Below the pieces are notes generated by a model. It saw only the letters and a program-made list of their open reading frames with translations. It did no database searches and had not been told where the DNA came from. Below are positions 4,919 through 36,567 of a stretch of 64,000 nt of DNA, piece by piece; positions within the stretch are counted from its first letter, which is position 1; each line of letters begins with the position of its first letter. Made by a program: the position numbers and the translations under genes. The stretch comes from Mycobacteriales bacterium (GTDB lineage: Bacteria > Actinomycetota > Actinomycetes > BP-191): contig JBKJUS010000107.1 of NCBI GenBank assembly GCA_046590575.1, forward strand, positions 9,934 through 73,933. Reading direction: 5' to 3'.

Positions 4919-5665
4919 CTAGCGGGAGGTGCGCGCCTCGGCCGGGCGGCGACGACGGCTGGCGACGGCGACGGTGCCGGCACCCACGGAGAGCGCGAGG
5001 CCGATGCCGACGAGGGAGAGGGCCAGGAGAAGGCCGTCACCGCGGGGTGCCATGGTGGTGGAACGCCGAGCCGCCGGAGCCGCTGCAGGAGCGCCCTGGA
5101 TGGCCGGGGCAGCTACCGCCGCCGGAGCCGCTGCAGGAGCCGGAGCGACGACGGCGGCAGGCGCCGGAGCGGCGATGCCGGGCTGAACAGCAGAGCCGCC
5201 CTGACGGGCCGGCGCCTGGGCCGGCGCGGCCGGCTGCTGGTTAGCGGCGGCGGGCTGGGCCGGGCGGGCAGCGACTGGCTTGGCGAGCACCTCGAACGGT
5301 GCGCGGGCCGGAGTGCCGCCGATAGGCTGGCCGTTCTGACCCATCTGGGTGGCGATCAGGACGTAATCGCCAGGGGCAGCCTGGGGCACGGTGAAGTTGA
5401 AGGCGATCTTGCCATCAACAGCCGGCCGACCCGACCACAGAACCTGACCATCGCGGGCGTTGAAGTGCACCTCGACCGGGCTGGACAGTGGACTGTTGCT
5501 GAAGCCGGCACCGGTACCGGCGACGTCGGCGCCGACCTGGGCCGCACTCTTGTCAACCTCGAGGGTGGCCAACGCCGTGCAGGCGTAGGCGAACGACATA
5601 GCGGCGAGCGGGACACCCACCAGTCCGGCGATGACGATTGACGATCGTCGGGTCCTGATCCGCAT
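4919..5665 (-). CDS. Pro/Ala-rich secreted, membrane-anchored hypothetical protein
   Basis: The internal ATG MRIRTRRSSIVIAGLVGVPLAAMSFAYA has a strong RBS (aaggagga). The protein has an N-terminal signal/TM, a globular segment, a long PA-rich low-complexity linker, then a C-terminal hydrophobic helix LLLALSLVGIGLALSVGAG followed by a RRRRP tail. The longer ORF start at 6118 has no support. Confidence 0.55.
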   Translation of the reverse strand: MRIRTRRSSIVIAGLVGVPLAAMSFAYACTALATLEVDKSAAQVGADVAGTGAGFSNSPLSSPVEVHFNARDGQVLWSGRPAVDGKIAFNFTVPQAAPGDYVLIATQMGQNGQPIGGTPARAPFEVLAKPVAARPAQPAAANQQPAAPAQAPARQGGSAVQPGIAAPAPAAVVAPAPAAAPAAVAAPAIQGAPAAAPAARRSTTMAPRGDGLLLALSLVGIGLALSVGAGTVAVASRRRRPAEARTSR

Positions 5666-5816
5666 TGCGTCCTCCTTTGGGGGAGACGATGTCTCCACAT
5701 ACTGCACGGCTGGGTGCAAACTGCACCTATTGTCCCGAATCGGGCACTCGGTTGTCAACCACGCGACTTCGCGGGCGCGGCGCGCCCAATCTGTGGCGCG
5801 CAGCCGACCGGTTACG

Positions 5817-7346
5817 GTGTGCGACGTGCCTCGATGTCGCCGCACTTGGCACCATTCAGCCGCCGTTCCTGCGATGGTGGCGGCCCTCCTTGGAGGCGTC
5901 GCCTGTACGCCGGCGACACCCGCTAGCGTCGCGGCGCCGAAGGCTGGGGTCGAGGTCTTCGTCAACACCCCGGGCGCCATCGACGCCAACAACACACCCA
6001 CAATCGTACGAAATCCGCGGCGCCCCAGCACATTGGTGGTCGTCCACCGGGTCGACCGGCCACGCTTCTCCGGGACGCTGCGCTGGAGCCAGGACGACGG
6101 CGCGACCTGGGGCAGCACTGCGCTGCCCTTGCCCTCGGGAAAGGACCGGCCGTTCCACCCGGACGCAGCGTTCGGGCCCGATGGTGTCCTCTACGTCGTA
6201 TACGGCAACCTCACCGGACCGCGCAACATGGGCGACGGGATCTGGGTCGCCACCTCGACGGACGGCGGCCGCACCCTGACGGAGCCCGTCCGCGTTGCCG
6301 CCGCTCGGTCCTTCCAGCCGCGGATCGCGGTGAGCCGCGGCGGCATGGTGCACGTGACCTGGTTGGCGGGCCGGGGCGTTTCGGTCCTCAAGCTTGTCGA
6401 CCCTCCGTCGCCGATCGTGACCGCCCGGTCGACCGACGGCGGCCGCACCTTCGGGAAGCCGGTTCAGGTCAGCGATCTGACGCGCGCGCGGGTGGGGGCC
6501 GGGAAGCCGTTCATTGACGGTCGTGGCGACCTCGCCGTGCTCTACATCGACTACAAGAACGACCGCAGAGACTTCGAGGACGAGCCGGGCCCGCCGTCGG
6601 ACGAGCGTTTCGCGCTGGTGCTTACTCGGTCCGGCGATGGAGGCAAGACGTTCGACCGCGGCGTTGAGATCGAGCGCGACGTGGTGCCGGCTCGTCGCTT
6701 CCTGGCCTTCGTGCCGGAATACGCCGACCTAGCGGTCGGGCCGGACAAGGCGATGTACGCCGTGTGGTCGAGCCGGCTCGACGGCGATGAGGATGTCTAC
6801 CTCCGCAAGTCCACTGACAACGGCGAGACCTGGTCCGAGGCGGTGAGGGTTGGCGCCGCGATGGACAACACCGCCGCCGACAAGTCGTCGCAGTACTTGC
6901 CGTCGGTTGACGTTGCGCCGGACGGGCGGGTGGACGTCCTGTATCTCGACCGCGCTCGTGATCCACGTGACGTGCTCGCGGACGCGACGCTAGCCACGTC
7001 GTACGACGACGGCCAGACATTTCAGGTTGTGCGCCTGTCCTCGAAGTCCTTCGACTCGACTGTCGGCTCGTCGGTCTCGCCCAACCTCCCCGCAGACTTC
7101 GGCAGCCGGCTGGCGCTGCTCAGCGAGACCGGCCGCGCGGTCGCAGCGTGGACCGACACGCGCATGGGGAACGCCGACACCGGTCGGCAGGACATTGCGC
7201 TTGTTCGCATCACGCTGGCTGAGAAACGCGCCGGGCGCGGGCCGCTCTGGAGCGTCGGGGCCGGCGTCGCCGCCGCTGCGCTGGCCGCGTTGGTGGGGAC
7301 ACTCATCTTGCGCCGTCGCAGGCGTCGGGGGAGGGTGGCGCGATGA
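5817..7346 (+). CDS. BNR/Asp-box repeat protein with C-terminal TM anchor (paralog of 820..2304)
   Basis: Asp-boxes are present (SQDDGATWGS, STDGGRTLTEP, STDGGRTFGKP, SGDGGKTFDRG, STDNGETWSEA, SYDDGQTFQ). The C-terminus is LWSVGAGVAAAALAALVGTLILRRRRRR. The start is uncertain: GTG at 5817 or 5826, or ATG at 5874, giving a lipoprotein-like MVAALLGGVAC. The track start at 5631 would overlap the upstream minus-strand gene. The stop overlaps the start of the next gene (ATGA). Confidence 0.7.
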   Translation: MCDVPRCRRTWHHSAAVPAMVAALLGGVACTPATPASVAAPKAGVEVFVNTPGAIDANNTPTIVRNPRRPSTLVVVHRVDRPRFSGTLRWSQDDGATWGSTALPLPSGKDRPFHPDAAFGPDGVLYVVYGNLTGPRNMGDGIWVATSTDGGRTLTEPVRVAAARSFQPRIAVSRGGMVHVTWLAGRGVSVLKLVDPPSPIVTARSTDGGRTFGKPVQVSDLTRARVGAGKPFIDGRGDLAVLYIDYKNDRRDFEDEPGPPSDERFALVLTRSGDGGKTFDRGVEIERDVVPARRFLAFVPEYADLAVGPDKAMYAVWSSRLDGDEDVYLRKSTDNGETWSEAVRVGAAMDNTAADKSSQYLPSVDVAPDGRVDVLYLDRARDPRDVLADATLATSYDDGQTFQVVRLSSKSFDSTVGSSVSPNLPADFGSRLALLSETGRAVAAWTDTRMGNADTGRQDIALVRITLAEKRAGRGPLWSVGAGVAAAALAALVGTLILRRRRRRGRVAR

Positions 7347-8107
7347 GAGTCGCCTTTGTGGGAAAGGGTGGGGCCGGCAAGTCGGCCATCGCCGGCACGT
7401 TCGCCCGGTCGCTCGCGCGTCGCGGCACATCGGTGCTCGCGTTGGACACCGATCCGCTCCCCGGCCTGGCGTTCTCGCTAGGCCTGCCCTCGACAGACGC
7501 GCCGATCCCGGAGGAAGCCACCGAGGAGAAGGCCGAAGGGGAGGATGGCCCGCGCTGGCGATTGCGCTCGGATCTGACGCCAGTAGAGGCAGTAGAGCGG
7601 TACGCCGCAACGGCGCCCGATGGCGTGCGCTTCCTGCAGTTCGGCAAGGTGCGGCGTCAGTGGACGGCGCCGGAGGTTCGCTCGCAGTTCGTCTTCCGGC
7701 AGATCGTTCATTTCCTCCCTGAGGAGCCGTGGAGCCTCGTCGGTGACCTTCCTGGTGGCACCCGACAGGCGTTCGGCGGGTGGGGGGGCTTCGCCCGCAC
7801 CATGCTCGTGGTGGTCGACCCCAGCGCCAAGTCGCTGCTTTCGGCTCGAAGGCTGGCCCGACTCGCCTCGATCGGCGAGGACCCGCCGCGGGTTGTTGCG
7901 GTGGTCAACCGCGTGCGTCAGGACGACGACGAGGCACTGGTGGCGCGGCGTAGTGGGCTCGATGTGGTGGGCGCGGTGCCATGGGACGAAGAATTCGCCG
8001 ATGCCGAACGTCGTGGCCTGGCGCCCATAGACGCCGCGCCGAACTGTCCGGCAGTGAAGGCAGTAGAGTCCCTCGTCGACCGACTGTGCGAGGAGTCCAG
8101 AGCATGA
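7343..8107 (+). CDS. CooC/MinD/ParA-family deviant-Walker-A P-loop ATPase, Cys-less paralog A
   Basis: N-terminus MRVAFVGKGGAGKSAIAGTFARSLARRG (KGGxGK[ST]). The conserved C-terminus is DAERRGLAPIDAAPNCPAVKAVESL. It has no CxC metal-binding motif and is closest to the paralog at 12846..13586. Confidence 0.8.
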   Translation: MRVAFVGKGGAGKSAIAGTFARSLARRGTSVLALDTDPLPGLAFSLGLPSTDAPIPEEATEEKAEGEDGPRWRLRSDLTPVEAVERYAATAPDGVRFLQFGKVRRQWTAPEVRSQFVFRQIVHFLPEEPWSLVGDLPGGTRQAFGGWGGFARTMLVVVDPSAKSLLSARRLARLASIGEDPPRVVAVVNRVRQDDDEALVARRSGLDVVGAVPWDEEFADAERRGLAPIDAAPNCPAVKAVESLVDRLCEESRA

Positions 8108-8844
8108 AGCTAGCCGTCGTCGGCAAGGGTGGGTCGGGCAAAACCACCACCTCCGCGATCATCGCGCGCACCTTCGCCCGAAACGGCGCGAACGTCGTCG
8201 GTCTCGACTGCGACTCCAACCCGAACCTCGGCATTTCGCTAGGTGTCGGCGACGACGAGACGGAGCGGCTTGAGTCCATGCGCCAGGCGCTCGACGAGGG
8301 CGACGAGGAGCACGCGCCGGGCTGGGACGAACTGATCGAGCGGTTCGGCTCCGACGCCCCTGACGGGGTTCGCCTCGCGGTGGTCACCCGCATTCAGAAC
8401 CCGGAGCCCGGCTGCCCTTGATGTGGTCTCTCTCCCGAGCAGTTGCTCGGGTCCGTGGACTTCACCGACACCGTCGTCGTCGCTGACCTCGAGGCCGGCA
8501 TCGGCACGTTGACCCGCATGGGTGACCAGAAGATTGACGTCGTACTCGTCGTCGTCGAGCCGACGCCGAAATCCGTCGAGGTCGGCGTACGGGCGTGCGC
8601 GCTCGTGCGGGAGAAGCAGTCGGCTGGGCAGCTCATCGTCGTGGCCAGCCGCGTGCGCAACGACGACGACCTGGCGATGGTGCGCAAGTCGTTCCCCGAC
8701 GAGGAGGTCGTGCCGATTCCTGACGACCCAGCCATCGTCGCCGCCGACCGCGAAGGGGTGGCCGCGCTGGACCGTACGCCGGACGCACCGGCCGTGCGCG
8801 CCCTGGTTGAACTGGCCGAGCGACTGCTGCCTGCAGGCGTCTAG
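8104..8844 (+). CDS. CooC-like P-loop ATPase with an in-frame TGA (8419..8421); candidate selenoprotein, read-through product 246 aa
   Basis: Track ORFs 7981..8421 and 8443..8844 are in the same frame with no other stop between them. The N-part is MKLAVVGKGGSGKTTTSAIIARTFARNG...NPEPGCP-TGA-CGLSPEQLLGSVDFTDTVVVADLEAGIGT..., so the two halves together equal one full-length paralog. The TGA lies inside the CxC-motif region that Cys paralogs have (GCLCSAHATV.., GCTCSGHATV.., ACVCCGSHAT..). A perfect 7-bp hairpin, cccgagc-agtt-gctcggg, sits at about 8434..8451, 12 nt after the TGA. selABCD are in this window. Confidence 0.6.
8434..8451 (+). promoter_or_regulatory. candidate SECIS-like hairpin 12 nt downstream of in-frame UGA 8419..8421
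   Basis: cccgagc-AGUU-gctcggg forms a 7-bp perfect stem. The spacing matches the roughly 11-nt UGA-to-stem distance of bacterial SECIS elements. Confidence 0.35.
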
Positions 8845-8848
8845 GCGG

Positions 8849-9232
8849 ATGGATTCTCGGCTCGCGCTTCCACTCGCCGGGTTAGCCGTCGGCGGCTGGG
8901 CGCTGCTGCCGCCGTATTCCGGTCCAGCGTTGAACACTGAGACACGCGTTGAGGTCATTGACCACGTCGTCCCCGGCATCGTGCTGCTCGCCGTAGCTGT
9001 GCTGTGCCTCGCTGTTCGTCGCGCCACGCTGCCGTCGGGGCTGATCGTGGCTCTCTGCGGCTTATGGATGGTCGCGACCCACGTGCCGCTGGTGCGCCAG
9101 GCCGCTGACGGCGCCGCGCCGTGGAGCGCCGTCGCCTACCACGCGGCGCCGTCGGTGGCAGTGTTGATGGTAGGTCTGTTGTGGGTGGTCCAGACATGGT
9201 CGGCTGAGGCGAACGAAAGCGCCCGGCACTAG
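8849..9232 (+). CDS. small polytopic membrane protein (about 127 aa, about four hydrophobic helices), hypothetical
   Basis: Internal ATG MDSRLALPLAGLAVGGWALLPPYSG... The sequence is strongly hydrophobic throughout. The longer ORF 8522..9232 would overlap the ATPase gene. Confidence 0.5.
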   Translation: MDSRLALPLAGLAVGGWALLPPYSGPALNTETRVEVIDHVVPGIVLLAVAVLCLAVRRATLPSGLIVALCGLWMVATHVPLVRQAADGAAPWSAVAYHAAPSVAVLMVGLLWVVQTWSAEANESARH

Positions 9233-9245
9233 CATCTGCGCCCTG

Positions 9246-10775
9246 ATGCCCAGCGTGTCGCTCCACCCTTCGCGGCTGCCCGCCGATGCCGACGGCGTTG
9301 CGTCGGGTGAACTGCGCATCCGGAACAACTCTCGTACGACGAAGACGTTCCGCCCGGAGGTGACCGGCGCCGCCGCCGACTGGGCGTCATTCTTTCCGCC
9401 GTCGGTCGCCGTCGGTCCGGGGCAAACCGGTGTGGTCCGATTGAACATGCGCGTGCGTCCCTCCCCGTCGACGCCAGTCGGGGTGGTCGACTTCGCGGTG
9501 GTGATCCACGGTGACGCGAGTGCGAAGCGCACGTTGTCTGTCAACGGGTCGATCGATGTTGCGGCACGGGCGGTGGTGGTGACCACCGTCGGCCCCATCA
9601 CCAACCCTTCGCCGTCTACCTCCATGCAGATGCTGCATATAGAGAACCGCGGAAACGGTGCGGGTCGGATGGCTGTGAGCGCCGCCGGTTCTGGCGTGCT
9701 CGTCGATGTCTCGCCGGAGCAAGCCGAACTGGCACCGGGTGAAGAGGTTGCGGTCGCCGTGCGTGCTCGGGCGGCGCGGCGGACATGGCGGGACAGTCGC
9801 GAGCTGCCCTTCCAGATCGACGTCGATGGCACGGGTGCGGCTCCCCGACGCATAAACGGCGCAGTCGCGCGGCGTCCGCTGCTGACGCGCCGCGCGGGTT
9901 GGGCGGCTACGGCCGGGCTGGCGGTGTTGCTGACGGCGGTCGTGCTGCGTACGACGGTTTTGGCTCCTGCTCCTGAAACGAAGCGGGTCATCGCGAAGGC
10001 GTGCCCGACGGCCGGCCACGAGCCGTCGTTGCGCAATGCGATCTCGTTTCCGCCCGGCCCGCTGAACAAACCGGCGACGGCGTACACCTACTACTCGCTT
10101 GAGCCTGGAAGCTGCGTAGCGCCGCGATTCAACCCGTGTGAGCCGTTGCGGTACGTGCTGAACTCGGACGCGGCACCCGCTGGAGGAGTGGCCGACGCGA
10201 AAGCCGCCCTCGCCATCGTCTCGGCGGCCACCGGCTTGTCCTTCGTCGAGGTCGGCTCGACCGACGAGAAGTTCAGCGCAGTGCGGTCGCCGTACCAGCC
10301 AGAGCGGTACGGCAACGAGTGGGCCCCTCTGCTGATCGGCTGGTACCGCCAAGGTGGCAGTGACAACCGGGTGATCCTCGGCCAGTCGCGCCCCTACGTT
10401 TCTCAAGGTGTTTACGTCAGCGGGTTCATCGGCCTCAATGTCGACGCCTACACCGAAGCCGAGACGAGGAGCCCGCTGAAGAGTGGGTTCGGCCCGGTGC
10501 CCGGCGCCGTGCGGGGACAGCCGATCGGCGCTCGAGGGGTCACTTGGGGCCGGGTGCTGCTGCACGAGCTGGTCCACCTGGTCGGTCTGGCCCACGTCGC
10601 GGACAGGTCACAACTGATGGTGTCCGAGCTCTCCCTGCACACCAATCCGCGGGCGGAGCTCGGCGCCGGAGACGTGGCCGGGCTGCGCACCCTCGGTCGG
10701 GCCGCAGGATGTCTTCCTACGCCGCCGGCGGGCTCACCCGGGCGCTACCCGGCGCCACCTCCTCCTTTCCTCTGA
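9246..10775 (+). CDS. membrane-anchored protein with C-terminal metzincin-type Zn-metalloprotease motif (HExxHxxGxxH)
   Basis: HELVHLVGLAHVAD is near the C-terminus. A single central TM (GWAATAGLAVLLTAVVLRTTVL) is present. The N-terminal region has two Ig/CARDB-like beta-rich segments. Downstream of the TM the protein is Cys-containing and Pro-rich. Confidence 0.65.
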   Translation: MPSVSLHPSRLPADADGVASGELRIRNNSRTTKTFRPEVTGAAADWASFFPPSVAVGPGQTGVVRLNMRVRPSPSTPVGVVDFAVVIHGDASAKRTLSVNGSIDVAARAVVVTTVGPITNPSPSTSMQMLHIENRGNGAGRMAVSAAGSGVLVDVSPEQAELAPGEEVAVAVRARAARRTWRDSRELPFQIDVDGTGAAPRRINGAVARRPLLTRRAGWAATAGLAVLLTAVVLRTTVLAPAPETKRVIAKACPTAGHEPSLRNAISFPPGPLNKPATAYTYYSLEPGSCVAPRFNPCEPLRYVLNSDAAPAGGVADAKAALAIVSAATGLSFVEVGSTDEKFSAVRSPYQPERYGNEWAPLLIGWYRQGGSDNRVILGQSRPYVSQGVYVSGFIGLNVDAYTEAETRSPLKSGFGPVPGAVRGQPIGARGVTWGRVLLHELVHLVGLAHVADRSQLMVSELSLHTNPRAELGAGDVAGLRTLGRAAGCLPTPPAGSPGRYPAPPPPFL

Positions 10776-10799
10776 CGGCGCAAGGGCATACTGGCCGCC

Positions 10800-11573
10800 A
10801 TGAAGCTGGGAGTGGCTGGCAAGGGCGGCGTGGGTAAGACGACGATCTCAGCGGTGCTCGCCCGTTCGCTGGCGCGGCGTGGTCACCGGGTGGTCGCTGT
10901 CGACTGCGACTCCGACCCCAACCTAGCCGCCAACACAGGACTCACTGAGGTCGAGGCGGCCGGTGTCCGCACCCTGCTCGACCAGTCTTCGGCGGTGCGC
11001 TCGGTGCCGGTCGGAGTAGGTCCCCGAGGGCTGCTTGCGGAGTACGGCCGGAGTGGACCGGACGACATCACTCTTCTGACTGCGGCGCGAGCAGAGCGAG
11101 CCGGCTCTGGTTGAACGGGTGCCGCCCACGTCACGGTCCGTGACTTCCTGCAGCAGTTCGACTCTGAGATCGCGTCGGGCGTCGTCATCGCCGACATGGA
11201 GGCAGGTCTTGAGCACCTGTCCTGGGCGGGCGGCACCCTGCGCCACATCGACCTGCTCCTCGTCGTGGTGCAGCCCTCGCCCAAGGTTCAGCTCACGGCG
11301 CGTCGAATCGTGGCGTTGGCCCGTCAGCTCGGCATCCCGCGCACCGCGTTCGTCGGCAACCGGCTGCGCGACGGCGACCTCGAACAGCTGCGCACTTTTG
11401 CCGGCGAATGTGGCGTCGAGCTGCTGGCCACCATCCCCGAGGACGTTGCGGTGCAGGCGGCTGACCGCGTCGGCGATTGCCTGCTCGACTCCGCCCCGGA
11501 CTCCGATCTGGTGCGGGCCGTAGACGGTCTAGCCGCGCGGCTCGAAGCGGACTTCCTCTCCGTCCTGTCGTAG
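10800..11573 (+). CDS. CooC-like P-loop ATPase with an in-frame TGA (11112..11114); candidate selenoprotein, read-through product 257 aa
   Basis: Track ORFs 10800..11114 and 11196..11573 are in the same frame with no other stops. The read-through sequence ...AARAERAGSG-U-TGAAHVTVRDFLQQFDSEIASGVVIADMEAGLEHLSWAGGTL... aligns residue for residue with paralog 13583..14338, ...NEAGAGCTCSGHATVRSFLGDALADQADITLVDMEAGLEHLSRAGGTL... The TGA falls exactly on the first Cys of the CxC motif. A 6-bp hairpin gtcacg-gtc-cgtgac with a GUC loop lies at about 11130..11144, 15 nt after the TGA. Confidence 0.65.
11130..11144 (+). promoter_or_regulatory. candidate SECIS-like hairpin 15 nt downstream of in-frame UGA 11112..11114
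   Basis: gucacg-GUC-cgugac forms a 6-bp stem with a GUC apical loop, which recalls the G/U apical loop of the E. coli fdhF SECIS. Confidence 0.35.
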
Positions 11574-11688
11574 CGGCGCCAGCACGCGAGCGCGCCGCTG
11601 GTATCCCTGTCCGCCTTGCTGGCACCAGTAGATGCCGTGCGCATATACTCGCGCCGGACTGCGCGGTGACCAGGTTGGTGGATGGCGG

Positions 11689-12069
11689 ATGGCGAACAGG
11701 GCTGGGGCCAGCGGGGAGTTCACGGTGAAGAGTCGTCGTGGCTCTTTCCTGACGCAGTCTCTGTTGCTCTTGCTCGAAGAGCGCCCCGACCACGGGTACG
11801 ACCTGCTTGACCGGATGGAGCACCTGGGTCTCGCGCGAGACTCCGGCGGGATGTACCGCACACTGCGCAGCCTCGAGGCGGAGGGGCTCGTCCGGAGCCA
11901 GCGCGCGCCCTCGCTGGCCGGACCGGAGCGGCGACACTACTCACTCACCCAGGACGGCCGACAGCGGCTCGACGAGGACGCCGGGGAGATCGCCGAGACC
12001 GTGCGCCTGCTTCAGCGATTCCTTCGGCGGCACCGGGCCGCAATCGCACTTCGGCACCCGACGGATTAG
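11689..12069 (+). CDS. PadR-family transcriptional regulator
   Basis: LLLLLEERPDHGYDLLDRMEHLGL...MYRTLRSLEAEGLV...RRHYSLTQDG matches the PadR winged-HTH signature. The start is taken at the internal ATG MANRAG. Confidence 0.8.
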   Translation: MANRAGASGEFTVKSRRGSFLTQSLLLLLEERPDHGYDLLDRMEHLGLARDSGGMYRTLRSLEAEGLVRSQRAPSLAGPERRHYSLTQDGRQRLDEDAGEIAETVRLLQRFLRRHRAAIALRHPTD

Positions 12070-12105
12070 CTCGGCACCCCGCAGATTGCCTGCACTGCAG
12101 TGCCG

Positions 12106-12849
12106 TCAGCCGTCGAGGAGCCGTGTCGTGAGCTCGTCGATGGCGACCATCGCCGGGGACCCCGCGTCGTGGTCCAACGGTGAGATGCCGAGATGGTCAG
12201 CCCGCTGCACGGAGGGGTCGTCCGGAATCGCGATGGTCTCCACGCCGAGCAGCTCCGAGAGCCGGACCCGCTCTGCCTCGGAGTGACAGCGCGCCGCGAC
12301 ACCGATGATCCTCTTGACGCCGAGGGTGTCGGCGATGTCGCGCGCCCGCCGGGCTACTTCGAACGCCTTCGCACTGGGCTCAGCGACCGCGATGACGACG
12401 TCCGTCGAGCCGGGCTTGGCCCAGATCAGGTCGTTGAGACCCGCCTCGAGATCGGCGATGACAGTGCGCCCGTCATCGGAGAGGGCACTGAAGAGCTCGC
12501 GAGTCGTCGCGTGCGAGCCGCAGCAGACGCAGGCATTGGGGATGCGCTCGATCTTGCCGGTCGCGACGAGGCGTACGCCGTCCGGGGTGTCGACGCCGTA
12601 CCGTTCGAGCAGCATCTCCGGGTCAGGGCGCGGGTCGTTGTGCGTGTGGCCGCTGCGGATCAGCCCGTTGAGCACCGCGTCCATCGACTCGACCGCATCG
12701 ATGGACAGGCCGAGCGTGACTCCGAGGTTGGGGCTCGGGTCGCAGTCGACGGCCACGACGCTCTGACCGCGGCGGGCGAGCAGCCGGGCCATGGTCCCGG
12801 AGACAGTGGTCTTGCCTGCTCCGCCCTTGCCGGTGACGACGACTTTCAT
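12106..12849 (-). CDS. CooC-like P-loop ATPase, Cys paralog D (CVCC motif)
   Basis: MKVVVTGKGGAGKTTVSGTMARLLARRG...IPNACVCCGSHATTRELF...VIADLEAGLNDL. The start overlaps the stop of the upstream gene. Confidence 0.85.
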   Translation of the reverse strand: MKVVVTGKGGAGKTTVSGTMARLLARRGQSVVAVDCDPSPNLGVTLGLSIDAVESMDAVLNGLIRSGHTHNDPRPDPEMLLERYGVDTPDGVRLVATGKIERIPNACVCCGSHATTRELFSALSDDGRTVIADLEAGLNDLIWAKPGSTDVVIAVAEPSAKAFEVARRARDIADTLGVKRIIGVAARCHSEAERVRLSELLGVETIAIPDDPSVQRADHLGISPLDHDAGSPAMVAIDELTTRLLDG

Positions 12850-13586
12850 AGTCGGACCTCCTCGCGCACCAGCAGGCCGGCGAGCGTCTCGATTGCGCCG
12901 ATGACGGGGGAGTCCGGGCAGGCGTCCAACGGAGCGAGACCGCGGCGTTCTGCGTCGGCCACGTCACGGTCGAATGGAATGCGAACGTCGGGCGCGAGGC
13001 CCTCGTGGTCCGACTCGCCGGTGAACTTGCTGGCCACCACGATGTAGGGGAGTCCGGGGAAGAGCCCGGCGAGGCGGCGGGCCGCCAGCGCGGACTTCCA
13101 CGCGGGTGTCACGACCAGCACCAGCCGCTGGGCGAAGCTGCTGTAGCCCTCGTACGGCGTCGTCGTACCCGCCTCGAGGTCGCCGATGACATCCCAGGAG
13201 GAGTCGGCCTCCCCGACGATCTGCCGCACTGCACCGAGGGAATGGCTGACCAGGTGGTTCGGCCTGTCGATCTTGCCGGGGCTGAGGTATCGCACCCCGT
13301 CGGGACTCTCGGTCGCGACCCGTTCCAGGATGTCTATGGAATTCACGTCCGGTGCCAGACCCCACCCGTAAAGTCCCTTGGGCACCTCGGCGATGAACTC
13401 ATCAGGAAGTCCCGCATCAGTGGGCTCGCTGCCTAAGCTCCACGCGAGGCCGGGGTTGGGGTCGAGGTCCACGGCGAGCACCTTCCGCCCGCGTCGGGCG
13501 AGGAGGCGGGCCAAGGTCCCGGAGATCATCGACTTGCCGGCGCCGCCGTTTCCCACGACGGCGACGCGCAGACCGACGCTGCTCAC
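12846..13586 (-). CDS. CooC-like P-loop ATPase, Cys-less paralog E with degenerate Walker A (GNGGAGKS, signature Lys replaced by Asn)
   Basis: A GTG start overlaps the upstream TGA (GTGA). The sequence is VSSVGLRVAVVGNGGAGKSMISGTLARLLARRG...VADAERRGLAPLDACPDSPVIGAIETL, similar to paralog A. The 150-aa Arg-rich N-terminal extension of the track ORF is spurious. Confidence 0.7.
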   Translation of the reverse strand: MSSVGLRVAVVGNGGAGKSMISGTLARLLARRGRKVLAVDLDPNPGLAWSLGSEPTDAGLPDEFIAEVPKGLYGWGLAPDVNSIDILERVATESPDGVRYLSPGKIDRPNHLVSHSLGAVRQIVGEADSSWDVIGDLEAGTTTPYEGYSSFAQRLVLVVTPAWKSALAARRLAGLFPGLPYIVVASKFTGESDHEGLAPDVRIPFDRDVADAERRGLAPLDACPDSPVIGAIETLAGLLVREEVRL

Positions 13587-14338
13587 CCGACCAGCGCCCC
13601 GTCGAGGTAGTCGAGGACCCGCTCCAGCTCGTCGCGCACAGCGTTGCCGCTCCCGAACTCCAGCCGGGCCCCGGAACGGTCGGCGTCGACGATGTCTGGT
13701 TCGAAGGGGATCACGCCGATGAGCGGTACGCCGTACTCGGCGCAGACGTCGCGGAAGAAGTCGCCGTCCTCGGGCATCCGGGCCTTGTTGCCGATGCCGT
13801 AGGTGCGGGGGATGCCGAGCTCTTCGGCGAGGGCGACGGTGCGCGCGCCGGTGAGGATCGACTTGCGGCTGGGTTCCATCACCATCAGCAGGACGTCGGC
13901 GTAGGCCAACGTGCCACCCGCGCGGCTCAGGTGCTCCAGACCGGCCTCCATGTCGACGAGGGTGATGTCGGCCTGGTCGGCGAGCGCGTCGCCGAGGAAA
14001 CTGCGGACGGTCGCGTGGCCCGAGCAAGTGCAGCCCGCACCGGCCTCATTGACCCGAATCGCCGAGAGCAGGGTCGCGCCTGACGGCGTGGGCCGGCCGT
14101 ACTCGCTGATCAGTTCTTCGGCGGTGGTGTCGCCCTTGGCGCCGACGATGAGCATGCGTGGCATGACCGGGACGGCCTCCATCTCCGCCATCGACAAGCC
14201 CAAGGAGAGCCCGAGGTTGGGGTTGGAGTCGGTGTCGATGGCCACCACCCGCTTGCCGCGCCTGGTGTAGGACTCCGCGATAAGGCCGGACATCGTGGTC
14301 TTGCCCACGCCGCCCTTGCCGACGATGCCGAGCTTCAT
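13583..14338 (-). CDS. CooC-like P-loop ATPase, Cys paralog F (GCTCSGH motif)
   Basis: Internal ATG MKLGIVGKGGVGKTTMSGLIAESYTRRG...AGAGCTCSGHATVRSFLGD...LVDMEAGLEHL. This is the closest Cys-containing homolog of the TGA-containing gene 10800..11573. Confidence 0.85.
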   Translation of the reverse strand: MKLGIVGKGGVGKTTMSGLIAESYTRRGKRVVAIDTDSNPNLGLSLGLSMAEMEAVPVMPRMLIVGAKGDTTAEELISEYGRPTPSGATLLSAIRVNEAGAGCTCSGHATVRSFLGDALADQADITLVDMEAGLEHLSRAGGTLAYADVLLMVMEPSRKSILTGARTVALAEELGIPRTYGIGNKARMPEDGDFFRDVCAEYGVPLIGVIPFEPDIVDADRSGARLEFGSGNAVRDELERVLDYLDGALVG

Positions 14339-14488
14339 GACCGGACCTCCACATGCTTGGCTGGCGATGACCCGCACTGGCGCGCACACTCTCACGAGAC
14401 CGTCTCATCGCACGGTGTCGCGGAAAGTTTGGCGCCGTGCCATCCTGCGGCTGAGGCGGGTGATGTGCAACCAAGGGAGCAGCTTCGA

Positions 14489-15268
14489 ATGAGAGTGGCC
14501 CTCGCCGGTAAGGGCGGCGCCGGCAAGACGTCCATCTCGGCCACGCTGGCCCGCTCGATAGCGCGGACCGGGGTGCAGGTCGTGGCGATCGACGCGGACA
14601 GCAATCCCAACCTCGCTCTCGCCCTCGGCATCCAGCGCGAAGCGGCGCTGAGCGCCGGCTACCTGCCCCACCAGCTCGTGTCGCGCAAGCTCACGGGGCT
14701 GTCGATGGTCGAGAGCGTGGACACCGTTCTGGCCCAGCACGCCTTGCCCGGTCCGGACGGTATCTCCGTGGTTCTGATGGGGGCACCCGCCCATGCCTCG
14801 GCCGGCTGCCTGTGCTCCGCGCACGCCACAGTGAGTGCGCTGCTCGGTGACCTGGGCGAGCGCCCCGAGATCGTCACCGTCGTGGACATGGAAGCCTCGC
14901 CTGAGCACCTGAGCCGGGGCACCGTGCAGCACGCCGACGTCTTGCTCCTCGTCGTGGAGAGCTACTTCCGCGCCCTGGAGTCCGGACGCCGGCTGGCCGT
15001 GCTCGCGGCCGAGCTGCCGATCCCGCGGGTCGCCGTCGTCGCCAACAAGGTGCGCTCATCGGAGGACTCCGCCGTCATCCGGGAGTTCTGCGAGCGGCAC
15101 GACATGGAGCTGATCGCCGAGGTGCCTTGGAGTGATTCGGTCACGTCGGCCGACGTCCGATCCGTCCCTGTCATCGATGCACCGGGCAACGAAGCGGTAG
15201 TCGCAGCGGTGCTCGGCCTAGCCAATAGGATCCTGCCCTCCCTTCCGCTAGTGGCGCCACGCACCTAG
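14489..15268 (+). CDS. CooC-like P-loop ATPase, Cys paralog G (GCLCSAH motif)
   Basis: The internal ATG has the RBS aagggagc. The sequence is MRVALAGKGGAGKTSISATLARSIARTG...ASAGCLCSAHATVSALLGD...VVDMEASPEHL. Confidence 0.85.
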   Translation: MRVALAGKGGAGKTSISATLARSIARTGVQVVAIDADSNPNLALALGIQREAALSAGYLPHQLVSRKLTGLSMVESVDTVLAQHALPGPDGISVVLMGAPAHASAGCLCSAHATVSALLGDLGERPEIVTVVDMEASPEHLSRGTVQHADVLLLVVESYFRALESGRRLAVLAAELPIPRVAVVANKVRSSEDSAVIREFCERHDMELIAEVPWSDSVTSADVRSVPVIDAPGNEAVVAAVLGLANRILPSLPLVAPRT

Positions 15269-15277
15269 GGTCGACGG

Positions 15278-16108
15278 ATGTCCCGGCTGCTCATCGTGAC
15301 GACCCGATCCCGGCTGCACGGCGTTCGATCGTTCCCGGCGATGCTGCTGGCTACCCGTCGGGTTCGGCGTCAGCTCCAGAACACCGAGGGGGTGGTGCGC
15401 TGGGCAAGCGTGGTCGCCAGTCCCACCGAGTTCTGGACCATCACGGCCTGGCGCAGCCGCCACGAGATGCAGGAGTTCATGCGCTCGGATGCGCACGGCG
15501 ACATCATGTGGCGTTTCTCCTCGCTGCTCAGCTCGCTCTGGCTGGTCCGCTGGCGGCCGACCGACCACGAGGTCGGCAGTTGGTCCGGCGTGCAGCTCGC
15601 ACCCGCCCATGCTGCCGAGCCGATCGAAGTTCCTACGGAGCGAGCTTCGGCCCGCCCCGCCCCCGAGGATCTGCCCCCGGAGCTGCGTGAAGTCATGGGC
15701 CCCGACGGCACGATCAGCTTCGAGGCGTCGCCGTACGCCCGCCGAGCGCGAGAGCAGCTCAAAGGGGTCGGGGGAGCGGTGCTCAGTGTCCAGTCCAGCC
15801 GGGTCGGCGCGCCGATTGCATTGTTTCGGCTGGCCCGCCATCGGCGGCGGCTCTTTCGGGACCCGGCGCTTCTGCGCAGCATCGTCGGCTTGGGCACCGG
15901 GGGCTCGGTCTACCTGCTGAGTGTCTGGCGCACCCCTGCGGACGCGGCTCGGATGCTCGAAAGCGACTGGGCCAGGCAGCAGCGACAACGGTACGGCGGC
16001 CGCTACTGGGCCAATGAGTGGGCGCCGGAGAGCGAGTTTGGGCATTGGGACGGCCTGCGGCTGCGCGGCGAGCAGCGGCGGGTACCGCACGCGCCGGACG
16101 CTGCCTGA
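15278..16108 (+). CDS. hypothetical protein with two tandem ~130-aa repeats (possible ABM/Dabb-like or DUF3291-like halves)
   Basis: Internal duplication: LLIVTTRSRLHGVRSFPAMLLATRRV...WTITAWRSRHEMQEF versus AVLSVQSSRVGAPIALFRLARHRRRL...LLSVWRTPADAARMLE. No catalytic motif was recognised. Confidence 0.4.
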   Translation: MSRLLIVTTRSRLHGVRSFPAMLLATRRVRRQLQNTEGVVRWASVVASPTEFWTITAWRSRHEMQEFMRSDAHGDIMWRFSSLLSSLWLVRWRPTDHEVGSWSGVQLAPAHAAEPIEVPTERASARPAPEDLPPELREVMGPDGTISFEASPYARRAREQLKGVGGAVLSVQSSRVGAPIALFRLARHRRRLFRDPALLRSIVGLGTGGSVYLLSVWRTPADAARMLESDWARQQRQRYGGRYWANEWAPESEFGHWDGLRLRGEQRRVPHAPDAA

Positions 16109-17156: not shown

Positions 17157-17558
17157 TCAGCTCTTGGGTGGCACGGCGGTCTTCTGCGACTCGCCGGGCG
17201 CGGACTCGGTGACGAAGTGGTCGTAGCGGTCGATGAAGCCGTCGATGGTCCGTCGGGCCTCTCGCAGCGTGCCGGCCCAGGCGTGCAGCCAGTCGGTGCC
17301 CTCGTCGCTGAGTCGGTAGGTGCGTCGCGGCGGGCCGAGGTCAGAGCTCTCCCAGCCGGATTCGATGAGACCTTCTTGTTCCATCGCACGGAGAGAGCGG
17401 TAGAGACCCCCGGGGTCGTTGCGTCGGAATCCCAGGTCGGCGAGGCGCACGAGCAGGTCGTAGCCGTGCGACGGAGCCTCGCCGATGAGCAACAGGAGAC
17501 AGGGGCGCAGGAAGTTGCGCGGTAGGCCTACCTGCAGGTCGTCGATGTCGCGGGTCAT
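17157..17558 (-). CDS. PadR-family transcriptional regulator
   Basis: LLLLIGEAPSHGYDLLVRLADLGF...LYRSLRAMEQEGLIES...RRTYRLSDEG. Confidence 0.8.
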   Translation of the reverse strand: MTRDIDDLQVGLPRNFLRPCLLLLIGEAPSHGYDLLVRLADLGFRRNDPGGLYRSLRAMEQEGLIESGWESSDLGPPRRTYRLSDEGTDWLHAWAGTLREARRTIDGFIDRYDHFVTESAPGESQKTAVPPKS

Positions 17559-17565
17559 GTCAGCC

Positions 17566-17958
17566 TCAGTGGTTGTGGGAGGGGTCGGCGAATCGTCGCT
17601 CGACGCAGGCTTCCGCCTCGTCCGGCGATGAGTGGCACCAGCAGTCCGCGCCGCACTCGCCGTGACCTGGCTTGGTCATGTCGGCGAAGTCCTCGGCAAA
17701 GACCCGCGCTCCGTGCGCCCGGCCAGTCTCGGTCAGTTCGTACAGACCGCCGAGGGAGTCGAGCAGACCCTCCTCGACCAATCGGTCCAGGTAACGCACG
17801 CCGACCCCGGCTTCGACGCCGAGGAACCGCTGCAGTAGCGAGGGGTCGACCTGGTCGCCGAACCCCTCGCCACGGATCCAGTACATGAGTTGAAGGATCT
17901 CGTCGCGCCAGAAGAGGGCGCGCATGGCCTCGGACTTGGGCTGGTGCAGCTCGTCCAT
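17566..17958 (-). CDS. hypothetical winged-helix-like protein with C-terminal Cys/His-rich motif (HGECGADCWCH...EAC); co-operonic with the PadR gene
   Basis: Internal ATG MDELHQPKSEAMRALFWRDEILQLMYWIRGEGFG... The stop is 8 nt upstream of the PadR start. The putative metal-binding cluster is at the C-terminus. Confidence 0.45.
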   Translation of the reverse strand: MDELHQPKSEAMRALFWRDEILQLMYWIRGEGFGDQVDPSLLQRFLGVEAGVGVRYLDRLVEEGLLDSLGGLYELTETGRAHGARVFAEDFADMTKPGHGECGADCWCHSSPDEAEACVERRFADPSHNH

Positions 17959-18039
17959 GCAGGCCTCCGGCGTACGACGGCGTCGTCGCCGTGGCACGAG
18001 TCTAGATGTTTGACACATCGACAGCATAGGGTCGCTGTC

Positions 18040-18555
18040 ATGGACTTCGACGAGCTGGCCGGCCGCCTAGAGGTGATGTTAGGCGAGCTGGACAGCCTGC
18101 CGCCGGATACCCGGGACATGGTGTTCGTCTTTCTTGATGACCTCGACACGCTGCACCGTCGGGCGGTGACCGGGCTCGCGACCGGGATCGAGCCGGCCGC
18201 GTTGGACGCCATGCGCGAGCGGGACCCGGCCGTCGCGTGGCTCTGCCACGCCTACGGGCTGGGGGTCGACGAGATCGAGGCGGCGGAGGCGGCGCTCGAG
18301 TCGATCCGGCCCTACATCGAGAGCCATGGGGGCAAGGTCGAGGTGCTCGGGGCAGCCGAAGGCGTTGTGCGCCTGCGGATGTCGGGCAGCTGTGCCGGCT
18401 GCTCGGCGTCGGCCGTGACACTCAGCCAGGGCATCGAAGAGGCTCTGCGTGAGCACTTCCCGGGCTATGCCGGCATGGAGGTGGCAGAAGACACCGCACC
18501 CAGTCATCCGCCGCCGGGCCCGACGCTGCTGCAGATCCAGCCGCGACCCACGTGA
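18040..18555 (+). CDS. NifU/Nfu-like Fe-S cluster assembly domain protein (hydrogenase-associated)
   Basis: The C-terminal half, HGGKVEVLGAAEGVVRLRMSGSCAGCSASAVTLSQGIEEALREHFPG, matches the Nfu domain CxxC signature. It is adjacent to a hydrogenase maturation protease gene. Confidence 0.7.
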   Translation: MDFDELAGRLEVMLGELDSLPPDTRDMVFVFLDDLDTLHRRAVTGLATGIEPAALDAMRERDPAVAWLCHAYGLGVDEIEAAEAALESIRPYIESHGGKVEVLGAAEGVVRLRMSGSCAGCSASAVTLSQGIEEALREHFPGYAGMEVAEDTAPSHPPPGPTLLQIQPRPT

Positions 18556-18575
18556 GGGCGCTTCTGCATGTGGCG

Positions 18576-19070
18576 TCAGCTCCAGGCGACGCCGGCCTCG
18601 GTCACGAGTCTGCGGACCTCAACCGCCGCCAGCGGCACCGCACGCCGTACGACGTGGGACAGCTCCTGCCCGACGCTCTGCGCGTCGACGGGCTGGCAGC
18701 CGACCAGCCAGCGCACGGCCGGCAGCACGCCGAGACCGCGGGCCAGCATCATCGCGCGCTCCGGAGTGGCGTAGTGCATGTCGCCGAGCTGGTCGTGACG
18801 CTCGGTCAGCGTCATCGCCCCGACGTCGACCACGGTCGGTTCGATCACCATCACGGTGCCCGGCGGCCGGCCGTGGTCGACCGCATCGACGATCACCAGG
18901 GCATCCGTGGTGTCGAAGAGCGCCTGGACGAGGTGAATGCCGCCGATGCCGATCTCCATGACTCGGACTCCCTCCGGGACGCCGAGGTCGATCAGATGGT
19001 GCGCGACCGCACAGCCGAATCCGTCGTCGCTTCGCAGCACGTTGCCGACGCCGGCGACCAGGATGTTCAT
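18576..19070 (-). CDS. [NiFe]-hydrogenase maturation endopeptidase (HyaD/HybD/HupD family)
   Basis: MNILVAGVGNVLRSDDGFGCAVAHHL... matches the conserved ILVLGIGNxLxxDDGxG N-terminus. Length 164 aa. Confidence 0.85.
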   Translation of the reverse strand: MNILVAGVGNVLRSDDGFGCAVAHHLIDLGVPEGVRVMEIGIGGIHLVQALFDTTDALVIVDAVDHGRPPGTVMVIEPTVVDVGAMTLTERHDQLGDMHYATPERAMMLARGLGVLPAVRWLVGCQPVDAQSVGQELSHVVRRAVPLAAVEVRRLVTEAGVAWS

Positions 19071-19111
19071 CTGCGCAGAATAGGGATTGCGATGGCTCGG
19101 GTAGGGACGCG

Positions 19112-20350
19112 ATGACCAGCGAGGCGATGCCGCTGGACGACACGGTGACTCAGCTGCGCAGCGACCTGCTGCGCTTCCCTGCCGACCGTTACCCCGTGCA
19201 GCATGCGACCGCGCAGTTCCACCTCGGCGTGATGCTCACCAACGCCGCGCGAGTCGAGGAGGCGGACACGGCGCTGCAAGTTGCCGTCGAGCTCTTCGAC
19301 CCGGCCGTGCTCCCCGGGGAGCACGGCAAGGCGCTCAACGCGTGGGGTGCTGCGCTGCGCATGGCCGGCCGCTTCGACGAGGCAGCCGCCGCCTTTGCCT
19401 CGGCCGCGGCTGCGCTGAAGACTGCGGGGCTGACCCCCGAGCGCGGTGCCGCCCTGTTCAACCTGGGCCTGGTTTTCCGCGACCTCGGGCTCGACCACAA
19501 GGCCGCAGGGGCGTGGGCGAAGGCCCGAGACCACCTCGACCCTGAGGTCGTCCCGGCCCAGGCGGCCGCCGTCCTGCGCGAGCTGGGCGTGCTGCGGCTG
19601 CACCTGGGGGACTTCGACGGCGCGCACGACGTGCTGACGAAAGCCGTCGAGCTCGCCATGCGCGCCTCCGACGAGTTCGGCCTCGCTGCCGCGTCGAACG
19701 CGCTGGGACTAGTCGAGCTGGCCCGCGGCCGACCCGAGAATGCGGTGACCGCTTTTCGGGACGTGGTCGCGGCCCATCCGCGCTCCGTGCGACCTGACGG
19801 ATACGCGATGGGGAAGGCTAACCTCGCGCTGGCCCACGAGCAGGCAGGGGAGCCCGAGCGCGCTCGACTGGCCGCGCGGCAGGCGCTCGGCTCACCGGTC
19901 ATTCCCGACGCGGTGCGCCAGCAGGCGCTCGCCCTGCTCGGGCGGGTCGGCGACGCGCCCGGCGGGATCTTCGCGGCCCTCGACGACGAGCGGATGGACC
20001 GGTGGCCGGCGCTGGTGCGCGAGGAGCTAGTCCGCTGGGTCGATGCCGACGAGACGGAACGTGTCGCGGAGAGCGCTGCCTGGATCGAGGGCCAGCTGGT
20101 CCGCCGCGAGGCCGCGCCGGACCTCGTCGAGGCGTGGCTGAACGCGCTGCTCGAGCTCCCGCCAGAGGCGATGCGGGCCGTCATGCACAGCACGCTGACC
20201 GCACTGGCGGATCGCGAGGAGGAGCACATCGCTCGATTCCGATCGGTGGTGATGCGTACGACGGCCCGCTTCCACGTCCCGCAGATGCAACGGCTCGAGG
20301 ACAGTTTCAGCCGCATCAGCGAGGAGCTGGGCCAAGATCCATGGACCTAG
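19112..20350 (+). CDS. TPR-like helical repeat protein, hypothetical
   Basis: 412 aa, Ala/Leu-rich with repeated helix-turn patterns (ALNAWGAALRMAGRFDEAAAAF..., AALFNLGLVFRDLGLDHKAAGAW...). Confidence 0.5.
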   Translation: MTSEAMPLDDTVTQLRSDLLRFPADRYPVQHATAQFHLGVMLTNAARVEEADTALQVAVELFDPAVLPGEHGKALNAWGAALRMAGRFDEAAAAFASAAAALKTAGLTPERGAALFNLGLVFRDLGLDHKAAGAWAKARDHLDPEVVPAQAAAVLRELGVLRLHLGDFDGAHDVLTKAVELAMRASDEFGLAAASNALGLVELARGRPENAVTAFRDVVAAHPRSVRPDGYAMGKANLALAHEQAGEPERARLAARQALGSPVIPDAVRQQALALLGRVGDAPGGIFAALDDERMDRWPALVREELVRWVDADETERVAESAAWIEGQLVRREAAPDLVEAWLNALLELPPEAMRAVMHSTLTALADREEEHIARFRSVVMRTTARFHVPQMQRLEDSFSRISEELGQDPWT

Positions 20351-20354
20351 CCCC

Positions 20355-25154: not shown

Positions 25155-25309
25155 GGGCGGAACCCCTTACGTATGTGACCGCTGCACCTACTGGCGAGGA
25201 CCTTACAACGCGCGGCTCGCATTGTGAACGTAGGTGGACTATCCGTTTCGACCGAACATGAGCGACACTGAGTGCCGGACACATCCACTGACCTCGGACG
25301 GAGTTTTGC

Positions 25310-25582
25310 ATGTGCCTCGGCATCCCCGGTGAGATCGTCGAGCTCGGGCCGGCAGACGAGCTCGCCATGGTCAATGTGGGTGGCGTGCGCCGGCAGGTGA
25401 ACGTTGGACTGCTGACGGGTGAGGACGCCGTCGGCGTCGGCGACTGGGTGCTGATCCACGTCGGCTTCGCGATGAGCAAGATCGACGAGGCCGAGGCCGC
25501 GTCGACATTGGAGTTCCTCCACAGCCTTGGGGCGACCTTCGACGAAGAGCTGGCCGCCCTGATTGAGAGCCAGATCGAATGA
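25310..25582 (+). CDS. hypC: hydrogenase maturation factor HypC/HupF
   Basis: Begins MCLGIPGEIVEL, the invariant MC(L/I)(G/A)(I/V)P start. Length 90 aa. Confidence 0.9.
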   Translation: MCLGIPGEIVELGPADELAMVNVGGVRRQVNVGLLTGEDAVGVGDWVLIHVGFAMSKIDEAEAASTLEFLHSLGATFDEELAALIESQIE

Positions 25583-36269: not shown

Positions 36270-36567
36270 GAGCTCCCTCGGCCACACCGGTTTTGAAGCC
36301 TGACCTTACCGATTTCGGCGACCCTGCTGAGCGGCGCAGCCTTGGCCGTGACGGCGGAACTCGGACAGGAAACCTCCACCGTTGGGCGGACGCTTCCGCG
36401 CCGGGCGCGATGCATCCTGTGCTGATGCCGTCCTCGGGACTCTCGCCAGTCACCCTGTCCGCATCCACGCTCCGGACGCATCCATCGGAGACCCCGTGAA
36501 GCTTCCTGTTCGTTCCGCACTCGTCGTCGCCGCGGCTTCCGCTCTGGTGTTCCGTAGTCAGAGCATG

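Follow-up and report, generated by a model that had tools for sequence, protein, structure and literature searches.

What do seven paralogous ATPase genes, two of them with an in-frame stop codon, do beside a [NiFe]-hydrogenase? We addressed this question for a 64,000-nucleotide stretch of the genome of a Mycobacteriales bacterium (lineage BP-191; assembly GCA_046590575.1, contig JBKJUS010000107.1, positions 9,934 to 73,933), hereafter the window. Its positions 7343-15268 hold seven intact paralogous open reading frames (ORFs) of ~250 codons each, here called A to G. Judged by their sequences, the seven genes encode CooC/MinD-fold ATPases of the CooC lineage, and the in-frame TGA codons of B and C very probably encode selenocysteine (Sec; U in motifs). 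The explanation that we favor, with moderate confidence, is that they form a set of ATP-dependent CooC-family metallochaperones for the adjacent hydrogenase, replacing the nickel-insertion step of HypB and perhaps that of HypA.

On the plus strand, A (7343-8107), a CooC-fold ATPase with the Walker A motif GKGGAGKS and no CxC motif, precedes its predicted partner B (8104-8844), a CooC-type ATPase with the motif GCP-U-CG in which the predicted Sec stands for the second Cys of CxC. C (10800-11573, plus strand) is an F-like paralog with the motif GSG-U-TG-AAH, in which Sec takes the first Cys position. The minus strand encodes D (12106-12849), a B-like paralog with CVCC-GSH; E (12846-13586), an A-like paralog with a GTG start, no CxC and the Walker A motif GNGGAGKS; and F (13583-14338), a canonical CooC-like ATPase with GCTCSGH. 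The other canonical copy, G (14489-15268, plus strand; GCLCSAH), is divergent from F. The CxC motif is thus present in D (CVCC), F (CTC) and G (CLC), present in B with U as its second residue, and half present in C, where the second Cys has become Gly (U-x-G). A first-pass annotation had described a seven-paralog CooC/MinD-like cluster at these coordinates, and both the identity and the coordinates are correct. It had also called A and E free of Cys: the two do lack CxC, which makes them CooC-like paralogs without the metal loop, yet they contain some Cys. The overlaps that it reported between the starts of B, E and D and the upstream stops were observed as four-base overlaps at A/B (ATGA), F/E (GTGA) and E/D (ATGA). 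There are two translationally coupled pairs, A-B and E-D, each with the CxC-less gene first and the CxC gene second.

All seven copies match the Pfam family CbiA (PF01656), which is the nucleotide-binding domain of MinD/ParA proteins. The deviant Walker A motif, GKGGxGK[ST], is found in every copy, with only E departing from it. We searched three copies, A, B and F, against solved structures and found that CooC1 (3KJE) was the top PDB match for each, with E-values of 1.8e-11, 9.8e-15 and 1e-21, respectively, in agreement with the lineage first proposed. The next matches were ≥4 orders of magnitude weaker, and the margin of CooC1 over MinD or NifH-type chains was 6-13 orders of magnitude. In B and F, the CxC aligned with Cys112/Cys114 of CooC1. 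AlphaFold2 models of A and of P0001, a 76%-identical Cys orthologue of B, were confident (pLDDT 87-89) and have the MinD/CooC/NifH fold, with a TM score of 0.73 to 3KJE. No specific family was found in NCBIfam, where every match fell far below its cut-off, including MrpORP (18-38 bits, cut-off 450), ApbC (18 bits, cut-off 348) and NifH. A scan for the HypB motif ENVGNLVCP was negative, and none of the seven resembles HypB, a G3E GTPase.

In another reading, the proteins are iron-sulfur (Fe-S) carriers, or redox-active NifH/Mrp-like ATPases, that build or mend the unusual clusters of the hydrogenase small subunit, and the loop bridges a [4Fe-4S] or [2Fe-2S] cluster instead of binding nickel. 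All copies show low-level Pfam matches to Fer4_NifH and NUBPL/ParA models, NifH and BchL are among the Foldseek matches of the AlphaFold2 models, and a NifU-like gene is a constant neighbor of the cluster; B and D also have three clustered Cys (CxCC). Opposed to this are the first rank of CooC1 for A, B and F, the alignment of CxC with residues that bind Ni/Zn in CooC1, and the very low MrpORP, ApbC and NifH scores. Additionally, the copies show neither the CxxC spacing of Mrp/NBP35 nor the Cys97/Cys132 pattern of NifH, and what these hyp clusters lack is the HypB step rather than a step of Fe-S assembly. We regard an Fe-S function as improbable.

Why do B and C carry stop codons? Each gene contains a single in-frame stop, a TGA at 8419-8421 in B and at 11112-11114 in C (both plus strand). 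B reads GCP-TGA-CG and C reads GSG-TGA-TG, and in both genes the reading frame and the coding composition, including that of third codon positions (GC3), are normal downstream. The sequence GCPCCG is found in all 120 of the 120 best database homologues of B, so that the TGA of B replaces an invariant Cys. To place these codons among relatives, we used 80 genome loci fetched with a B-family profile, with ≤10 kb on each side of the match and labelled by L-numbers. By tblastn, 61 of the 62 in-frame stops in CooC-like genes of these loci are TGA, and every one of the 61 sits on one or the other Cys codon of CxC. The TGA forms read GCxUCG or GUxUCG in genes of the B type and GUxC..H in those of the G, F and C types. 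Their carriers span Acidimicrobiales, Egibacteraceae, Nitriliruptorales, Thermoleophilaceae, Rubrobacteraceae, Chloroflexota, Acidobacteriota, Verrucomicrobia, SAR324 and Dormibacterota. No in-frame stop was found in the 37 A-type genes, nor in the HypC, HypD, NifU, large-subunit, SIS or TPR homologues of the same loci. Apparent in-frame stops in the HypE, h187, h284, h153 and HhyS alignments are not Sec sites; they arose from query ORFs that were too long or out of frame. A pattern scan of metagenome contigs (matches within L090-L209) identified Sec-type B genes on at least 119 contigs; among the matches listed, 69 are double-Sec forms (GUxUCG) and 50 read GCxUCG.

The window also encodes the Sec machinery: selB (33159-34964), selA (34968-36287) and tRNA-Sec (36568-36663) on the minus strand and selD (about 36.7-37.74 kb) on the plus strand. 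TGA serves as the ordinary stop of A, E, F and the BNR gene upstream of A. A scan of the window for further selenoprotein genes, in the form of TGA-joined ORFs, returned only ordinary gene ends, with thresholds that also missed B and C. In many B-type genes two TGA codons stand one codon apart (G-U-x-U-C-G) upstream of a single hairpin; among the genome loci these are L007, L010, L011, L012, L014, L018, L020, L021, L031, L032, L037, L080 and L083. Public gene calls split the Sec-type B gene in L088 (10799-11575, called as 116 + 121 amino acids) and L089 (10756-11490, 103 + 131 amino acids), and the family is therefore systematically mis-annotated in databases.

In bacteria, the Sec insertion sequence (SECIS), as modelled by bSECISearch, is a stem-loop shortly downstream of UGA with G/U in the apical loop. 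A hairpin of this kind lies at 8434-8451 (plus strand) in B, reading CCCGAGC-AGUU-GCUCGGG; it starts 12 nt after the UGA and has a 7-bp stem, an AGUU loop and a UGA-to-loop distance of 19 nt. Among B-type genes its consensus is (C)YGAGC-AGUU-GCUCRG, encoded by S-P/A-E-Q-L-L-G. The pairing holds at 89.5% in 25 Sec forms, compared to 21-47% when the pairing is slid, and the first base of the Pro/Ala codon covaries with the third base of the Gly codon (CG 11, GC 10). The codon pair TTG-CTC occurs in 24 of 25 Sec forms and in 0 of 17 Cys forms with the same peptide (p = 7e-11); the hairpin-forming codons at synonymous sites are thus specific to TGA forms, which supports the Sec reading. Folding energy alone gives the B hairpin modest support (z = -2.2). 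The hairpin of C, at 11130-11144 (plus strand), reads GUCAC(G)-GUC-(C)GUGAC, with a 5-6 bp stem and a G-GUC-C loop. Its register matches that of the covarying hairpin of the Sec-type G, F and C relatives, and it contains a compensatory U-A pair; the case for the C hairpin is built on this register and covariation. In the G/F/C-type genes the hairpin lies within the codons for H-A-T-V-R-G and is 80% paired, compared to 18-48% for slid pairing, with 26 double-substitution cells, a number reached by 0 of 500 shuffles. An Rfam scan matched tRNA-Sec and no SECIS model.

These observations bear directly on another possibility, that nonsense mutations have turned B and C into pseudogenes within a decaying paralog array. 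Each has an in-frame stop, C has lost its second Cys and E its signature Lys, and in one genome, L023, a TAG stands at the Sec position. Decay is opposed by the stops, 61 of 62 of which are TGA, across many phyla and only on the two Cys codons, by the intact frames and GC3 downstream, by the Sec machinery within the window, and by covarying hairpins whose synonymous-site constraint is confined to TGA forms. The pseudogene reading is very improbable, and the comparative stop and hairpin evidence effectively rules it out. That B and C are Sec proteins had been proposed from the start and is upheld by the TGA codons at Cys positions, the hairpins and the sel genes.

Two variants of the Sec site were observed. 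The TAG-bearing B-type gene of L023 (Blastococcus saxobsidens DSM 44509, NZ_POQT01000006.1; position 10316) keeps the SECIS-forming codons CCT GAG CAG TTG CTC GGG; the TAG may mean that the gene was inactivated recently, that Sec is no longer used, or that the sequence contains an error. C reads U-T-G (11112-11120) where its closest Sec relatives, L034 and L040, read U-T-C; the second CxC ligand has been lost, and the Sec codon and the hairpin have been kept.

How are the seven copies related, and are the pairs conserved? Reciprocal comparisons among the paralogs and their relatives yielded four conserved types, A, B, F and G. The A type has no CxC, an invariant GKGG.GKS and the signature DLPGGTRQ.F.GWG; the motifs of the other types are GC.CCG.SPEQLL (B), GCTC.GH (F) and GCLCSAH (G). 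E, which is 46% identical to A, is a second A-type gene; D is a diverged member of the B type, with orthologues that pair with A/E-type genes in L039 and L072; and C is a diverged F-type gene. The comparisons thus place F and G in the widely conserved core and C, D and E as additional paralogs of F, B and A, in place of the first-pass view that C and G are the extra copies. F and G are often divergent neighbors in relatives, as they are in the window. The paired arrangement, which it had been suggested to seek in other Actinobacteria, does recur among the loci: of 44 cases, 39 have an A/E-type gene as the immediate upstream neighbor of a B/D-type gene, mostly with 0-50 bp between the two. This gene order supports the CxC-less copy as a conserved partner of the CxC copy. 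The earlier suggestion that this partner is degenerate, as in ArsA, fares less well. The loss of the signature Lys in E (GNGGAGKS) is real, but the E-type gene of L039 reads GKGGSGKT and does not share it, which marks the Lys-to-Asn change as specific to this lineage. Since A-type proteins keep the signature Lys of the deviant Walker A invariantly, and the loss in E is lineage-specific, the idea of an ArsA-like degenerate partner is weak. The C-terminal motif A(D/E)R.G..P.D..P, once thought to distinguish A and E, occurs in variant forms in most copies, including B, D and G, and is family-wide. The conserved multi-paralog set is the A+B pair with F and G, and we provisionally note that no such set was found in the literature searched.

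What do these ATPases serve? The window encodes a [NiFe]-hydrogenase on the minus strand, with the large subunit at 21860-23761 and the adjoining small subunit at 23790-25154; its large-subunit gene is 6.6 kb from G, and the large subunit carries Cys, not Sec. The closest solved structure is that of HofG, from the R. eutropha group 1h ("actinobacterial") hydrogenase (5AA5, E = 1e-147). We class the enzyme as group 1h/1m-type by this closest structure and by the gene set. The genes hypC, hypD and hypE and a SIS-domain gene occupy 25292-28762 (plus strand). Further accessory genes at 17890-21209 (plus strand) encode a NifU-like protein, a 187-amino-acid ORF, a TPR protein and a BirA-like protein (weak BPL_LplA_LipB match), and this accessory set is that described for group 1m clusters by Ray et al. 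2022 (PMC9561532). The first-pass annotation reported hypCDE and no hypA, hypB or hypF. We found hypCDE as described, and neither hypF nor hypB was detected by tblastn in the whole 64-kb window (with the HypB of L076 as query); for hypA, a strict MHE...CxxC...CxxC regular expression was negative, which is a motif-only and weak test.

Across genomes, hydrogenase or hypC/D/E/F genes are present in 53 of the 80 loci. Both this co-occurrence and that with the BNR genes discussed below had been suggested as checks, and both were found. By ATPase type, hydrogenase or hyp genes are present in 41 of 53 cases for G, in 16 of 18 for F and in about half for A/B, and G is the type most tightly tied to them across phyla. 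In L001, L085, L086 and L003, A-B-F(-G) lies between the hyp genes and the hydrogenase structural genes, a tighter linkage than in the window. A HypB homologue, searched for with a genuine HypB from L076, is found in 1 of the 80 genome loci and, among the matches listed, in 1 of 119 metagenome loci; hypF is present in about 19 loci. No HypA or HypB match was listed in any Pfam-labelled context, including L001, L003, L085 and L086. The client had been considered impossible to name from sequence. In many genomes, however, hydrogenase/hyp clusters contain orthologues of A, B, F and G, and for this reason we name the neighboring oxygen-tolerant [NiFe]-hydrogenase of the group 1h/1m type, with fair confidence, as the most likely client. 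The metal-delivery role first proposed is consistent with the gene context.

The A-B pair has a second set of neighbors, which raises the possibility that only F and G serve the hydrogenase. The start of A overlaps the stop of an upstream membrane-anchored BNR beta-propeller gene (ATGA). Downstream of B lie a gene for a 127-amino-acid small membrane protein without a Pfam match (8849-9232, plus strand), which recurs downstream of A-B elsewhere, and, in the same operon, a gene for a 509-amino-acid protein whose N-terminal domains are Ig-like (FixG_C-type) and whose C-terminal part weakly matches matrixin (HExxH) (9246-10775, plus strand). The resulting block, BNR571-A-B-mem127-metz509 (5631-10775), is tightly coupled. 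Homologues of BNR and/or mem127 flank A-B in 9 genome loci and at least 20 metagenome loci; examples are L005, L007, L011, L014, L030, L088, L106, L121, L138, L170 and L199. On this reading, A-B (and E-D) would be a separate metal-handling or envelope system working with the BNR, membrane and metzincin-like genes or with transporters. It would fit the coupling and its recurrence, the A-B loci without nearby hydrogenase or hyp genes (about half), and the cases in which A-B stands beside ABC transporters (L087) or an HMA-ATPase and MerR (L089) with no hydrogenase in view. In L001, L003, L010, L013, L016, L019, L023, L069, L085, L086 and several metagenome contigs, on the contrary, A-B lies directly between the hyp genes, F and the hydrogenase, and there is no obvious route by which cytoplasmic ATPases would act on extracytoplasmic propellers. 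We consider a separate A-B system unlikely, and a single set serving the hydrogenase remains our preferred reading.

By analogy to CooC1, in which two Cys per monomer hold one Zn or Ni at an ADP/ATP-dependent dimer interface (PMC6006190), ATP/ADP-driven dimerization would join the CxC loops into a transient metal site, from which Ni(II) would be handed to the apo large subunit. A-B and E-D would act as heterodimers with a one-sided C-x-(C/U)-C site; the B type (CxCC, CxUC or UxUC) is produced jointly with the conserved CxC-less A type and probably dimerizes with it. For F, G and C, homodimers are envisaged, in which the site would be (C/U)-x-C...H. F and G would represent the single-gene canonical members, and C, D and E lineage-specific extra copies. 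In B, C and many orthologues one or both loop Cys are predicted to be Sec, and the metal would therefore be held by selenolate(s). Why Sec would be used is a matter of speculation: a selenolate has a lower pKa, is faster in ligand exchange and is more resistant to irreversible oxidation, properties that would suit aerobes.

Several observations weigh against this nickel-insertase model. Tight Ni binding is not universal among CooC proteins (PMC6006190), and a role in handling Fe-S clusters would also agree with the NifU-like neighbor and with the three Cys of CxCC. C lacks its second Cys, and its hairpin is no stabler than shuffled sequence (z = +1.0). Hydrogenase and hyp genes are missing within 10 kb of about half of the A-B loci, and the recurrent arrangement of A-B with BNR and membrane genes is not accounted for by a nickel chaperone. 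HypA and HypB may be encoded beyond the flanks inspected. Finally, the metagenome contig L209 combines a Sec-type A-B pair with hypC, with a genuine homologue of hypB (55% to the HypB of L076) and with a more distant hydrogenase (40% large-subunit identity), and A-B and HypB are therefore not strictly exclusive.

Other genes recur around the cluster, in the window and elsewhere. Between C and D the window encodes a PadR-family regulator identified by Pfam (11632-12069, plus strand), and next to G a 276-amino-acid protein with a weak ABM-like match (15278-16108, plus strand), whose homologues adjoin A-B/F in L003, L013, L069, L148, L157 and L208. At 17157-18027 on the minus strand, the gene for a 153-amino-acid winged-helix protein, whose tail is rich in Cys and His (HGECGADCWCH), precedes one for a PadR regulator; in other genomes these two genes immediately precede the G-type gene. 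The triad of this protein, PadR and a G-type gene is conserved directly upstream of hypC/hydrogenase genes in L052, L055, L058, L063, L066, L077 and other loci, and may be a metal-sensing regulatory module. The 187-amino-acid ORF (18552-19115, plus strand) lies between the NifU-like and TPR genes with a 4-nt overlap to both; its gene call is uncertain since its tblastn matches elsewhere contain stops and it has no Pfam match. Other clusters encode a HycI-type endopeptidase, of which no counterpart was identified in the window. Peptide/nickel-family ABC transporter genes (SBP_bac_5, BPD_transp_1, and ABC_tran with oligo_HPY) lie beside A-B in L003 (1-3331), L085 (17217-20735) and L087 (10892-20744), and HMA-domain proteins, a P1B-type ATPase and MerR regulators are near the cluster in L086 and L089. 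Three consecutive ORFs of ~85-104 amino acids without a Pfam match are conserved beside the hydrogenase small-subunit or ATPase genes in L001 (12554-13412), L003 (3339-4125), L085 (12405-13245) and L088 (14789-15611); they may be the small transmembrane proteins of Ray et al. 2022 (PMC9561532).

If the Sec reading is correct, aerobic soil and desert bacteria, which are not usually thought to be rich in selenium, contain a widespread selenoprotein family in which Sec occupies a metal-trafficking rather than a redox site. More broadly, and more tentatively, we propose that this family, with its C-x-U, U-x-C or U-x-U loop and its CxC-less partner, could be a HypA/HypB-independent nickel insertase for the atmospheric-H2 hydrogenases of Actinomycetota, Chloroflexota, Acidobacteriota and others, a generalization that we put at somewhat less than even. 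It would suggest a nickel route for group 1h/1m-type high-affinity hydrogenases without hypA/hypB, which is relevant to the heterologous expression of these oxygen-tolerant enzymes, and would make selenium a hidden need for atmospheric hydrogen oxidation in many soil bacteria. The conserved combination of a metal-loop subunit with a loop-less paralog is a testable candidate for an asymmetric chaperone of the SIMIBI class.

How does the cluster compare to known systems? The nearest is CooC1 of Carboxydothermus hydrogenoformans (3KJE/3KJI), which functions in Ni insertion into Ni,Fe-carbon monoxide dehydrogenase. It shares the MinD-type fold, the length of ~250 amino acids and the deviant Walker A (GKGGVGKTT), and its Cys112/Cys114 hold one Ni/Zn per dimer. 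However, identity to CooC1 is only about 25%, the neighbor here is a [NiFe]-hydrogenase, and we find several paralogs, a conserved CxC-less partner, a CxCC variant and Sec in place of one or both Cys. No Pfam match to carbon monoxide dehydrogenase/acetyl-CoA synthase was seen among the scanned window ORFs or in the contexts of L001, L003 and L085-L089; no homology search for cooS was run across all loci. The ATPase-type HypB of Thermococcus kodakarensis (3VX3, 5AUN-5AUQ) is a precedent for a MinD-fold ATPase that takes the nickel-insertion role of the GTPase HypB. It matches at the level of the fold, is a distant relative (E = 1.2e-4 compared to 1e-21 for CooC1), belongs to the Mrp branch, works with HypA, and has neither a CxC loop of the CooC kind nor Sec.

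Sec takes the place of a metal-ligating Cys, with Sec/Cys pairs among the homologues, in [NiFeSe]-hydrogenase large subunits and in predicted metal-handling selenoproteins listed in a 2026 selenoproteome review, namely CopZ-like proteins, SO_0444 Cu/Zn efflux proteins and E1-E2 ATPases with UxxC (PMC13188914), but none of these is a P-loop NTPase metallochaperone. In the family table of this review there is no entry for CooC, MinD, CbiA or a P-loop protein, and UxU is not among the motifs (PMC13188914). In the literature searched, whose coverage is incomplete, we found no report of Sec in CooC or in any other MinD-class ATPase, a result that is provisional. Ray et al. (2022, ISME J, PMC9561532) had already noted a CooC-type "Ni insertion ATPase/GTPase" in the group 1m clusters of Actinobacteriota; these clusters share NifU-like, TPR, BirA-like, DUF1059 and small transmembrane proteins with the present one, and have 5AA5 as the best model. 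Their account is one annotation line, with no mention of Sec, paralogs, pairs, the absence of hypA/hypB or occurrence outside Actinobacteriota, and none of these was found in the supplements. The link between a CooC-type gene and a group 1m hydrogenase is therefore not itself new; what appears to be new here, provisionally, is a branch of the CooC metallochaperones that bears Sec, comprises several paralogs and is linked to a hydrogenase.

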